From the NCBI GenBank assembly GCA_050260455.1, contig JBLNCF010000012.1, forward strand, positions 1-56,235: a stretch of DNA of 56,235 nucleotides, given 5' to 3'. Under the pieces are notes generated by a model that was not told the origin of the DNA, searched no databases, and saw only the letters and a program-made list of their open reading frames with translations. Made by a program: the position numbers and the translations under genes. The DNA is from Bacillota bacterium (GTDB lineage Bacteria; Patescibacteriota; Minisyncoccia; Phycocordibacterales; Phycocordibacteraceae). This document shows positions 3,813 through 11,698 of this stretch, piece after piece. Within the stretch, counting starts at the first letter, position 1; every line of letters begins with the position of its first letter.

Positions 3813-4424
3813 ATGTCTAATCCGCATCCCAGCACCGAGCGCACGCTCGTTATCGTGAAGCCCGATGGTGTCCAGCGTGGCCTCGTTGGCGAGGTCATTA
3901 AGCGCTACGAGCAGGTAGGTCTCAAGCTCGTTGCTATTAAAATTGGCGTCCCGACTGCCGAGAAGATTGAGCAGCACTACACGCTTGATCCGAACTGGCG
4001 TCGTGTCACGGGCGAGAAGACCATCGAAAGCTACAAGGCAAAGGGCATGCAACCGCCGTCCGAGGATCCGCTTGAGATCACGGCAGTGATTCTCCAGAAC
4101 CTGAAGTCCTACATGACCTCGGGCCCGGTCGTGTTCATGGTGTGGCAGGGTGCACACGCCGTGAAGATCATCCGCAAGCTTACTGGCGGTACCGAGCCGC
4201 TTACGTCGGATGTCGGTACTATCCGTGGCGATTATGTGCTCGACTCCTACCAAATGGCCGACCTCGATGGTCGTGCTGTACGCAACGTCATTCACGCATC
4301 GGGTTCCGTGGATGAAGCAAATGCAGAGATTGCACATTGGTTCGCGCCGAGTGAAGTCGTCGATTATCGCCTCGTACAGGAAGGTATCTTGTACGACGTG
4401 AACATGGACGGCATTCTCGACTAA
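3813..4424 (+). CDS. ndk: Nucleoside-diphosphate kinase
   Basis: RTLVIVKPDGVQRGLVGEVI, GTIRGDY, catalytic NVIHAS; ~35-aa insertion after HY. Confidence 0.96.
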   Translation: MSNPHPSTERTLVIVKPDGVQRGLVGEVIKRYEQVGLKLVAIKIGVPTAEKIEQHYTLDPNWRRVTGEKTIESYKAKGMQPPSEDPLEITAVILQNLKSYMTSGPVVFMVWQGAHAVKIIRKLTGGTEPLTSDVGTIRGDYVLDSYQMADLDGRAVRNVIHASGSVDEANAEIAHWFAPSEVVDYRLVQEGILYDVNMDGILD

Positions 4425-4435
4425 CGAGAACCCCC

Positions 4436-4471
4436 AAACGAAAAGCCGCCCTCGTAGCGGCTTTTTCGTTT
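4436..4471. terminator. Intrinsic terminator after ndk
   Basis: aaacgaaaagccgc/gcggctttttcgttt stem with U-tract. Confidence 0.85.
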
Positions 4472-4487
4472 CTTCAGAGAGGGGAGG

Positions 4488-4493
4488 TATACT
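4488..4493 (+). promoter_or_regulatory. -10 box of the putative 6S RNA
   Basis: TATACT a few nt before the start of the long stem. Confidence 0.7.
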
Positions 4494-4496
4494 TAT

Positions 4497-4635
4497 GGTC
4501 GGCCATCTCCATACAAGCAACTTGCTCATTTTTCGGGAGTCTTAAATTCACGTGCGTCTGCAAAGCGTTCGCTTTCAATGACCACGATGCGGACACCCAC
4601 GTGGCACTAGAAAGTTGCCACACGGAGATGGCCAC
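4497..4635 (+). ncRNA. ssrS: Compact 6S RNA (putative)
   Basis: Rod fold: GGCCATCTCC(4501-10)/GGAGATGGCC(4624-33), GCAACTT/AAGTTGC, asymmetric central bubble containing GGGAG, then CACGTG/CACGTG and GTCTGCA/TGCGGAC around an ACC bulge (GGACACCCACGTG); own -10 box and terminator. Confidence 0.78.
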
Positions 4636-4666
4636 GAGAAAACCCCGCTTCTGCGGGGTTTTCTCG
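4635..4666. terminator. Intrinsic terminator of the ncRNA
   Basis: cgagaaaaccccgc/gcggggttttctcg perfect 14-bp stem. Confidence 0.88.
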
Positions 4667-4681
4667 TGCTACAGTTTCGAT

Positions 4682-6061
4682 ATGAAACTTACGTTCGTTG
4701 GCGGTGCCGGCACTGTCACAGGTTCCAATTTCTTGGTTGAAGGAGAGCACGGAAAGATTCTTGTCGACTGTGGTCTTGAACAGGGGAGGGATTTTGCCGA
4801 GGAAGAAATGTACGCACCATTCCCGTACGATGTGCCATCCATCGACGCGCTCGTCATCACCCATGCGCATCTAGATCACATTGGTCGTGCACCTAAGCTC
4901 ATGCGCGAAGGCTTTAAAGGGAAGGTGTATGCTTCACCGCCTACGAAGGATCTCATGGATGTGATGCTCTACGACAGCGTAAACGTGCTGTCGCAGGAAG
5001 CCGCACGTAGAGGTTTGAAGCCCATGTACGATGAGGACGATATTCGTGCTCTCATGTCCCGTGTTATCGCTGTCGAATATCACACCGAGACCGAAGTTGC
5101 TCCGGGACTCTCCGTATATCTCCGTCACACTGGCCATATCCTCGGTTCGGCAAGTATCCGCATCAAGGAAATTGCAACCGGCGCTACGCTTGCGCTCACG
5201 GGTGACATCGGCAATCCTTCGCCCTATCTTCCCGCATGGGAGCCTATTGATGACGCTGATGTCATCGTCATGGAAAGTGTGTATGGAGATCGTGTCCACC
5301 CGAATCTCGCCAATCGTGTACCGGAGCTCCGTGACACTCTGAAGCGGGCTATTGAGCGCGTCGGGGTCATTCTTATGCCGGCGTTCTCGCTTGAGCGCAG
5401 CCAGCTCATGCTCTATGAGATCTCTAATCTAATGAGTGCGGGCGAGATTCCGAAGATCCATGTTTTCCTTGATTCGCCCTTGGCTATTGCCGCCACGCGT
5501 GTGTACGAGAAGTGGGCAGGCACGTATTTCAATCATGCCGCCCAGGAAGAAACGAAGGCCGAACACAGCATCTTCCGCTTCCCAAACCTTGAAATGACCG
5601 AGTCTCGCGATGAATCGCTCTCCATTGCAGATGCGCCTATCCCAAAGATGATTATCGCGGGGGCGGGCATGAGTCACGGTGGTCGTATTGGTCAGTGGGA
5701 ACAGATGTACCTGCCTGATCCCTCCACTACGCTTCTTATCGTCGGGTACCAGGCTCCCGGCAGCCCCGGACGTATGCTCCAGGATCAGGCACCTACCGTG
5801 CGCATAAATGGAGAGGACGTACGGGTACGCGCCAAGGTAGATACGCTTTCTGCGTGGTCAGCACATGCCGATCGCGATGAGCTGGTTAAGTTTGCTGGGA
5901 GCTGTCTGCCCCACACGAAAACCTTCTTTACGGCGCTCGGTGAACCCGAGAGCGAGCGTTTCCTCGCGCAGCGCATTAACGGCTTCTTGGGTGCGAAAGC
6001 CGTAGTTTCAGGGGCAGGGCAGAGCTGGGAGATAACGAAGCAGGGTGCACGGAAGGCATAA
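4682..6061 (+). CDS. Metallo-beta-lactamase/beta-CASP family ribonuclease
   Basis: MKLTFVGGAG start, THAHLDHIG, GHILGS, TGDIG, ESVYG, SAHAD; start moved from GTG 4601 to ATG 4682 (TGcTACAGT 6 nt upstream). Confidence 0.93.
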   Translation: MKLTFVGGAGTVTGSNFLVEGEHGKILVDCGLEQGRDFAEEEMYAPFPYDVPSIDALVITHAHLDHIGRAPKLMREGFKGKVYASPPTKDLMDVMLYDSVNVLSQEAARRGLKPMYDEDDIRALMSRVIAVEYHTETEVAPGLSVYLRHTGHILGSASIRIKEIATGATLALTGDIGNPSPYLPAWEPIDDADVIVMESVYGDRVHPNLANRVPELRDTLKRAIERVGVILMPAFSLERSQLMLYEISNLMSAGEIPKIHVFLDSPLAIAATRVYEKWAGTYFNHAAQEETKAEHSIFRFPNLEMTESRDESLSIADAPIPKMIIAGAGMSHGGRIGQWEQMYLPDPSTTLLIVGYQAPGSPGRMLQDQAPTVRINGEDVRVRAKVDTLSAWSAHADRDELVKFAGSCLPHTKTFFTALGEPESERFLAQRINGFLGAKAVVSGAGQSWEITKQGARKA

Positions 6062-11289: not shown

Positions 11290-11302
11290 AGTTCAGATGA
11301 TG

Positions 11303-11698
11303 TGGAGGTGGGGGGAATTGGACCCCCGTCCGAATCTCTCTTTGAGGACGAGTCTACGACGCATAGCTAGCATTGATTGTTCGACAGAAGCATAGGAACG
11401 CTAGCGAAAACGCTCCTGCCTAATCCTGAGATTTAAATCCGGCGTCTAGGAAAACGTGGATCGATCCCGCAGGAGATTCCGCCCACACCTATCGCTGCGG
11501 AAGCCGATAGGGTAGACGTCGCTTAGGCGAAAGCGCGAAGCTTTTACGCGAGAGCGAACGCACCGTTCCAGTACGGAGACGGTACGCTTGCAACGTTTTT
11601 GTTGGCAAGTTTGGTTGTGTACGTTAGTAGGCGGTCAGTACACCTCCGCCGCGTCGCACGTCTCTCAAAGAACGAGACCGTCAAAGCCGGTCACCCCC
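11303..11698 (-). ncRNA. ssrA: tmRNA (one-piece, 396 nt)
   Basis: GGGGGTG/CACCTCC acceptor stem with G3-U, TTTGAC D-analogue, GGGGG-TCCAATT-CCCCC T-arm, internal tag ORF; adjacent to smpB. Confidence 0.97.
11544..11606 (-). other. tmRNA tag ORF ANKNVASVPSPYWNGAFALA*
   Basis: Resume codon GCC after AAACTT; ends FALA-TAA. Confidence 0.85.

Follow-up and report, generated by a model that had tools for sequence, protein, structure and literature searches.

The 6S RNA is one of the few regulatory RNAs that are nearly universal in Bacteria; it mimics an open promoter, thereby holding back RNA polymerase. As judged by comparison of sequences and covariance models, a compact and divergent member of this family is very probably encoded by an ssrS-type gene at positions 4488-4666, on the forward (+) strand, of contig JBLNCF010000012.1. 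The whole stretch of DNA analysed, 56,235 nucleotides (nt) long and hereafter called the window, belongs to the 690-kb, 98%-complete genome of a Paceibacteria/Kaiserbacteria-like bacterium of the Candidate Phyla Radiation (CPR).

In characterised 6S RNAs, RNA polymerase copies part of the RNA itself into a short product RNA (pRNA), whose synthesis starts at U44 in Escherichia coli and at nt 40 in Bacillus subtilis (PMC8876501). The terminal stem, corresponding to the closing arm of the rod-shaped molecule, is dispensable for polymerase binding in E. coli, and truncations of B. subtilis 6S-1 RNA to 78-82 nt still bind the polymerase, template the synthesis of pRNA and are released (PMC8876501). 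The E. coli 6S RNA (ssrS) is 184 nt long and is processed from a longer transcript; differently, the ends of the RNA described here are set by a promoter and a terminator. In Actinobacteria, where the standard 6S model is unsuccessful, a rod-shaped, 6S-like RNA named Ms1 binds core polymerase and has no 6S core motifs (PMC9130861). The RNA of the window is likewise a rod in a lineage where the standard model, RF00013, fails; unlike Ms1, it has the core of RF00013 and is linked by covariance models to certified 6S RNAs, i.e. those scoring above the cut-off of RF00013.

The RNA gene and its kinship with 6S RNA

The gene starts with a -10 box, TATACT (4488-4493), located 7 nt before a structured, rod-shaped RNA of 133 nt (4501-4633), and ends with an intrinsic terminator (4636-4666) composed of an A-tract (GAGAAAA), a CCCCGC/GCGGGG stem, a UUCU loop and a U-tract (UUUUCUC). 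By inspection of the sequence, these elements form an A-tract/GC-stem/U-tract structure of 13 base pairs (bp), which a consensus terminator scanner misses because the U-tract sits inside the extended stem. Transcription is predicted to start at 4500/4501, at the base of the closing stem, and to end near 4665, and the primary transcript, terminator hairpin included, would be about 165 nt long. In the alignment of 10 genus members, neither the TATACT box nor its distance varies, and a TATAAT or TATACT box is found 6-8 nt 5' of the rod in about 22 of 24 members of the order; the sequence also agrees with the -10 consensus of the genome itself, GG-TATA(A/C)T. Position and shape of the terminator are kept, with covarying stems, in all genus members. 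A real and independent small-RNA gene, equipped with a promoter and a terminator, is therefore located at 4488-4666 on the + strand. A preliminary description of this DNA had proposed here an unannotated 6S RNA with these properties, and its proposal is supported by reciprocal covariance-model evidence and by core motifs shared with RF00013; the TATACT box, the 10-bp closing stem, the GGGAG and 3' motifs and the perfect terminator that it had listed are all present in the sequence. The arms of the terminator are perfectly symmetric (GAGAAAACCCCGC / GCGGGGUUUUCUC), with a U-tract on both strands, and the hairpin could act in both directions.

The similarity to 6S RNA is found in the sequences that form and flank the central bubble. 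The RF00013 consensus, as given by cmscan, runs cuGAgCC - gAaaauuuuuauaaua - GGGagccc ... gggcaCCCACCUgg ... GGuUCaA, and the window RNA reads GCAACUU - GCUCAUUUUUC - GGGAGUCU ... GGACACCCACGUGG ... AAGUUGC, agreeing with it in order and in helix-bubble-helix layout. The core shared with the model is GGGag...gcaCCCACCUgg, forming a GGGAG.../...CACCC helix that borders the bubble upstream; in the window it consists of GGGAG (4535-4539) and CACCCACGUGG (4594-4604), with one substitution with respect to the RF00013 consensus CACCCACCUGG. The motifs GGACACCCACGUG (4591-4603) and GAAAGUUGC (4610-4618) are present on the 3' side. Of the helices named below, P3 corresponds to GGGagccc/gggcaCCC of the model and P2 to its cuGAgCC/GGuUCaA helix. 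The 3' bubble strand is of the CCCACCUGG type, differing by the presence of CCCACGUGG in place of CCCACCUGG; its CCCACGUGGCA matches the CCCACCUgg of RF00013 with one change, and the 5' bubble strand is U-rich, as in the consensus. The core adjoining the bubble is nearly invariant in the family.

Covariance models connect the RNA to accepted 6S members in both directions. In a phylum-wide sample of 401 genomes, RF00013, whose gathering cut-off is 46.4 bits, exceeds this value in 8, with a maximum of 73.2 bits; at E<=0.01 it finds 39, and all of these genomes belong to other classes. The earlier statement that no characterised 6S RNA of the CPR is known thus needs to be qualified: certified loci occur in Patescibacteria outside this class, and no paper combining 6S RNA with CPR, Patescibacteria or Parcubacteria was found. 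Of the eight certified loci, three (L140, L141 and L143) are matched in position and strand by a model built from ten genus sequences only (R1), with scores of about 28 bits and E values of about 1e-4 or lower. With a second model (R2), rebuilt from 73 sequences of the genus and of wider relatives, some RF00013-detected loci included, L145 is also matched at 36.3 bits and L138 at 22.2 bits, bringing to five out of eight the certified loci found by R1 or R2. Conversely, RF00013 gives 17 sub-threshold matches (E<=1) in 301 genomes of the order, ten of which have the same place and strand as R1 matches (G199, the best one, with 31.5 bits, G118 with 26.9 bits, G088, G038, G253, G327, G084, G269, G246 and G291), while the probability of a chance coincidence is about 1 in 10,000 per genome. 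Homology to accepted 6S RNAs is thus established through intermediate sequences.

The window RNA and the certified RNAs (L138, L140, L143 and L145) have in common the rod, a central bubble of about 11-16 / 13 nt, the apical arm and the presence of a single copy per genome. They differ in size, the rod of 133 nt being compared to 187 positions of the model and to 153-158 nt in the certified relatives, in the terminator hairpin that abuts the rod and in the fixed position of the gene after ndk. The usual 6S length of about 180-200 nt is not reached even when the terminator hairpin is counted; this length is typical of 6S RNA and not strictly defining, as the certified Patescibacteria members indicate.

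BLASTN finds the element in nine genomes of the same genus, with promoter, core sequences and terminator kept. R1 gives exactly one full-length match in each of 89 of the 301 order genomes (63 of 190 genera); R2, run on 401 genomes of the class, matches 136 of them, belonging to 105 of 282 genera, in single copy except for one genome with an extra partial match; both counts are lower bounds, since the large scans use strict filters. A single match is also found in the genome that carries the window and in the window itself, searched with filters off; the genome contains no other 6S candidate, which is in favour of the identification. Match lengths of R1 and R2 down to 105 nt are partly an artefact, because the model skips the outer closing helix in several members. 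On the basis of these comparisons, the RNA is a single-copy, independently transcribed gene of the housekeeping type. One order member, G118, has two tandem 6S-like genes about 100 nt apart (L049:1512-1643 and L049:1745-1933), which score 47 and 30.6 bits with R2 and are reminiscent of the 6S-1/6S-2 paralogues of Bacillus.

Fold, arm lengths and proposed mode of action

The + strand, terminator included, folds with -79.5 kcal/mol (z = -8.6 vs 200 dinucleotide shuffles), much more stably than expected by chance. The closing stem P1, in which GGCCAUCUCC (4501-4510) pairs with GGAGAUGGCC (4624-4633), is a perfect 10-bp helix in the window; compensatory changes affect 10 of its 12 pairs in the trimmed alignment of the ten genus members and 12 of 12 in the family alignment of 73 sequences. 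Considering the whole fold, 95% of the cells of the genus alignment are paired, compared to 38-49% when the partners are slid by 1-3 columns; in the family alignment 92% of the cells are paired, with 489 double-change cells vs 119 +/- 16 in shuffles. The preliminary description had expected a 6S RNA to be conserved and to covary in relatives, and both properties are found in the alignments. A small internal loop (6/5 nt) separates P1 from the 7-bp helix P2 (GCAACUU, 4517-4523, with AAGUUGC, 4612-4618), which is paired in 97% of the cells and has the same sequence throughout the genus. Next comes the central bubble, where the 5' strand GCUCAUUUUUC (4524-4534, 11 nt), unpaired in the covariation-supported fold, faces the 3' strand ACGUGGCACUAGA (4599-4611, 13 nt), the -10-like, non-template side; its size is close to that of a transcription bubble.

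Upstream, the bubble is bordered by the core helix P3, of general form GGG.AGYC(U)/(G)GRC.CCC, between GGG-A-GUCU (4535-4542) and GGAC-A-CCC (4591-4598). Pairing is found in 96-98% of its cells and compensatory changes at four of its seven pairs; U:A pairs are replaced by C:G in 4 of 10 genus and 36 of 72 family members. The distal part of the apical arm is an imperfect hairpin of 48 nt (4543-4590), capped by AAAGC-GUUC-GCUUU; the segment forms a hairpin in every family member, despite its divergent sequence and length. The rod typical of 6S RNA, with closing arm, large central bubble and apical arm, is thus the fold supported by covariation. Nearly or fully invariant stretches of the genus alignment are TATACT, GCAACUUG, GGGAG, UGCGGRCACCCACGUGGC and AGUUGC, and CCCACGUGGCA of the 3' bubble strand is also nearly invariant.

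The RNA was assigned to the + strand because the G:U pairs and the conserved -10 box fit this strand only; an RNA transcribed from the minus strand, which folds equally well (z = -8.4), was rejected for the same reason. A minus-strand open reading frame (ORF) of 53 amino acids (aa), at 4474-4635, is implausible as a coding sequence, since the changes in the stems are compensatory and the lengths of the apical arm (50, 63, 64, 66, 67, 68, 73 and 76 nt) differ by numbers that are not multiples of three.

This fold departs in several points from the one first proposed, which contained a helix between two copies of CACGUG (4549-4554 and 4598-4603). These are paired in only 64% of the cells, with zero compensatory changes: the 5' copy drifts (CACGCG, CCGCGU, UCGUAC, CAGGCG) and in the predicted fold pairs within the apical arm with CACG-A-UG (4583-4589); hardly any change is seen in the 3' copy, identical in eight of ten members and with single substitutions in G016 and G032, because it is part of the conserved CCCACGUGG core. 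GGGAG had been placed in a bubble strand of 25 nt opposite 8 nt; this is incorrect, since GGGAGUC pairs with GACACCC and the bubble is of 11/13 nt.

The misplaced bubble was also the basis for the claim that the terminal-loop arm, which mimics the -35 region, is strongly shortened. Measured from GGG to CCC, the apical arm is 64 nt long in the window vs 73 positions in RF00013, and the apical arms of certified Patescibacteria 6S RNAs are only 47-51 nt, shorter than that of the window; across the family they fall into two classes, of about 47 nt and of 62-77 nt. Sequence comparison indicates that the miniaturisation lies in the closing, downstream-DNA-like arm, which is roughly halved (23 + 22 nt vs 42 + 41 positions in RF00013, with 10 vs 17 bp for P1, 6/5 vs 12/13 nt for the internal loop and 7 vs 10 bp for P2), the apical arm being nearly normal. 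A 6S RNA of 133 nt is mechanistically plausible, because the 6S-1 truncations mentioned above are functional (PMC8876501); in these, a bubble and two short arms are sufficient for binding, pRNA synthesis and release. The truncations are engineered, whereas the window RNA would be a natural shortening in which the full apical arm and the -35-like region are kept. The absence of -35 boxes from the promoters of this genome, which had been put forward as an explanation, is borne out by a crude genome-wide survey (see below); it cannot account for a short apical arm, since this arm is not shortened. Our verdict is that the first identification as a 6S RNA was right, and that details of the fold and the explanation of the shortening were not.

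Polymerase binding, pRNA synthesis and release are inferred from the behaviour of homologous, characterised 6S RNAs. The transcript of this TATACT promoter, which has no -35 element, would mimic an open promoter, with the apical arm in the role of upstream DNA, the bubble in that of the melted -10 region and P2 with P1 in that of downstream DNA. By analogy, the rod would occupy the active-site cleft of the polymerase carrying the primary sigma factor, withdrawing the enzyme from promoters; the genome encodes one primary-type sigma of 442 aa and three small proteins of the sigma-70 family. Upon a rise of nucleoside triphosphates (NTPs), the polymerase would copy the 5' bubble strand (4524-4534), the presumed template region, into P2, giving a short pRNA. 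Its probable start is opposite C4525, U4526 or C4527, the second to fourth unpaired base after P2, a position suggested by analogy with U44 of E. coli and nt 40 of B. subtilis; the predicted 5' ends are 5'-GCAAGUUGC..., 5'-AGCAAG... or 5'-GAGCAAG.... Of the two starts originally put forward, this position favours the second, GAGCAAGUUGC from C4527, or its neighbours, over the one from C4534.

The synthesis of pRNA would unwind P2, the putative equivalent of the downstream duplex, and the freed AAGUUGC may then lock into an alternative hairpin with the 3' bubble strand (4601-4621), formed by GUGGCA (4601-4606) and UGCCAC (4616-4621), leading to release of the RNA. P2 and this candidate release hairpin are mutually exclusive, as they compete for UGC 4616-4618; in the nearest-neighbour model, the hairpin state is the minimum-free-energy fold with -51.1 kcal/mol, vs -47.2 kcal/mol when P2 is enforced. 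More distant relatives have a pre-formed CCUAG...CUAGG hairpin at the 3'-bubble site, similarly to free B. subtilis 6S-1 RNA, which has a small hairpin in this bubble strand. When positions 4508-4527 are blocked in silico, as a pRNA would do, the hairpin and the apical arm remain intact and the closing arm melts. This modelled behaviour fits the published principle of release, in which the unwinding of P2 allows the 3' bubble strand to refold (PMC8876501); the same principle would be common to E. coli 6S RNA, where the unwound downstream helix frees the 3' strand for a hairpin of the 3' bubble.

Evidence against a 6S RNA and alternative explanations

Several results weigh against the identification as 6S RNA. 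RF00013, to which the preliminary description had looked for confirmation, gives no match in the window at its gathering cut-off, none at E<=10 in the 281-nt stretch 4420-4700 and none at E<=10 in the whole genome; the RNA is below every reporting level of the model, and the cut-off is reached by none of the 301 order genomes. Similarly, R2 does not match E. coli ssrS at E<=10, indicating no detectable sequence-model similarity between the two RNAs. The second stem of 7 bp is possible as first proposed, with GCAACUU facing AAGUUGC; it gets no support from covariation, since the sequences of P2 and of the core do not vary within the genus. For the release hairpin there is a single compensatory change (GUAGCA/UGCUAC in G016). 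Moreover, the tight linkage of the RNA to ndk and to the downstream gene for a beta-CASP nuclease leaves room for an extra, lineage-specific role that the RNA may have. The other weak Rfam matches (istR, RsmY, RNAI and similar) cover the terminator hairpin only.

This linkage is also what would be expected of a CPR-specific rod RNA with an ancestral or convergent GGGAG/CACCCAC core and a partner other than that of 6S RNA, which could be the beta-CASP nuclease or, for an Ms1-like binder, core polymerase. The order ndk - RNA - (small ORF) - beta-CASP is present in 22 of 24 Paceibacteria genomes and the RNA follows ndk at 33 of 80 ndk loci; gene order, however, is generally sticky in such small genomes, and the above-cut-off homologues of other Patescibacteria classes adjoin neither ndk nor beta-CASP, so that the RNA family exists independently of both genes. 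A nuclease as partner has some precedent in B. subtilis RNase J1, which processes and degrades 6S RNAs (PMC10578484), and Ms1 is structurally related to 6S RNA (PMC9130861); yet no Ms1-type family is found among the Rfam matches at E<=10 for 4420-4700. The failure of the window RNA with RF00013 would be accounted for by an RNA of this kind, whereas the agreement with 6S RNA of the core, of the bubble size and of the helix layout extends to details. We thus regard this explanation as improbable. If the RNA is a 6S RNA, the neighbouring RNase J-like nuclease may be an added partner.

A cis-acting leader, i.e. a riboswitch or attenuator controlling the beta-CASP gene through the terminator at 4636-4666, is highly unlikely. 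A structured domain and a terminator do precede the gene start by 15 nt, and the linkage to beta-CASP is conserved; however, in 22 genomes the RNA and the gene are separated by anything between 13 and 675 nt, and most of these genomes have a gap of 400-675 nt that probably contains another gene, and a conserved -10-like TGCTAnAGT after the terminator indicates that in the genus the downstream gene has its own promoter. Furthermore, no antiterminator pairing appears in any predicted fold, the homologues of other classes sit elsewhere in the genome, unlinked to beta-CASP, and the similarity to RF00013 also speaks against a leader.

The RNA of the signal recognition particle (SRP), or 4.5S RNA, was considered because the genome, 98% complete, has no match to the models RF00169 and RF01854 at E<=0.01 and searches for the helix-8 motif give no convincing match; its gene either falls into a gap of the assembly or has diverged too far for the models to recognise it. 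That the RNA of the window fills this place is hardly credible. In SRP RNA, conservation is highest at the apex, with its GNAR loop and flanking loops, whereas in the RNA of the window no part varies more than the apex, in sequence as well as in length. The RNA has no GGAA/AGCA helix-8 motif, no SRP family is among the Rfam matches at E<=10 for 4420-4700, and its homologues are recognised by RF00013 and not by SRP models.

Genomic context and significance

In the window, ndk, the 6S-like RNA and the beta-CASP/RMMBL gene lie on one strand (3813-6058), in the order kept in the Paceibacteria genomes mentioned above; as a family-wide trait the synteny with ndk was rejected, because it is limited to Paceibacteria and does not extend to other Patescibacteria classes. 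The ndk ORF (3813-4424, matching Pfam NDK) is separated from the RNA gene by an intrinsic terminator on the + strand (4440-4466), found by terminator scan as a 10-bp stem followed by a T run. The NDK protein has 203 aa vs 135 positions of the Pfam domain, which it matches in two stretches, and the alignment with homologues of other classes is broken into two blocks (residues 8-64 and 93-196); comparison of the sequences thus indicates a lineage-specific insertion of about 30 aa or more. On the other side of the RNA, the gene for the beta-CASP metallo-beta-lactamase nuclease, with matches to Pfam Beta-Casp, Lactamase_B and RMMBL, starts with the ATG at 4682, and a -10-like TACAGT (4670-4675) precedes this codon by 6 nt on the + strand (4670-4684); the gene probably gives a leaderless mRNA from its own promoter. 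In relatives, the interval between RNA and beta-CASP often reaches 400-675 nt and probably contains a small gene, which is absent from the window. An Rfam scan of the window also detects a tmRNA gene on the minus strand (11300-11698; RF00023, 85.8 bits) and five tRNA genes.

The promoters of the genome were surveyed, in a crude way and with self-made ORF calls, in 107 upstream regions having a -10 box that matches at five of six positions. The consensus is G-G-TATA(A/C)T, and there is no information at -35, the score for TTGACA at spacers of 16-18 being equal to that of control offsets. In 66 of the 107 regions the -10 box is 6-10 nt from the ATG, a sharp peak of the distance distribution, suggesting that leaderless mRNAs are widespread in the genome.

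Standard annotation leaves this CPR class, which has genomes of about 0.7 Mb and is presumed to be symbiotic, without a 6S RNA. The family described here fills this gap for at least one third of the sampled Paceibacteria genomes and supplies seed sequences for extending RF00013. The concept of 6S RNA is unchanged, since the regulator is known and this family is one of its divergent branches; it provides a natural experiment to find which parts of the 6S rod are required, with a halved closing arm and with core, bubble and apical arm kept, in agreement with the 6S-1 truncations. A more far-reaching interpretation, which we consider rather unlikely, is that this is a naturally minimised 6S RNA, as small as a functional mimic of an open promoter can be, and that ndk, RNA and beta-CASP form a functional module for dormancy and outgrowth and not a frozen accident of gene order. 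The rod, of about 125-160 nt, would then be barely longer than the footprint of the polymerase, in genomes with no -35 signal and with largely leaderless mRNAs; ndk would provide the NTP supply that sets pRNA-driven release, and the RNase J-like beta-CASP nuclease the turnover of 6S RNA and pRNA. Sequestration of the polymerase may matter for such slow-growing, host-dependent cells.

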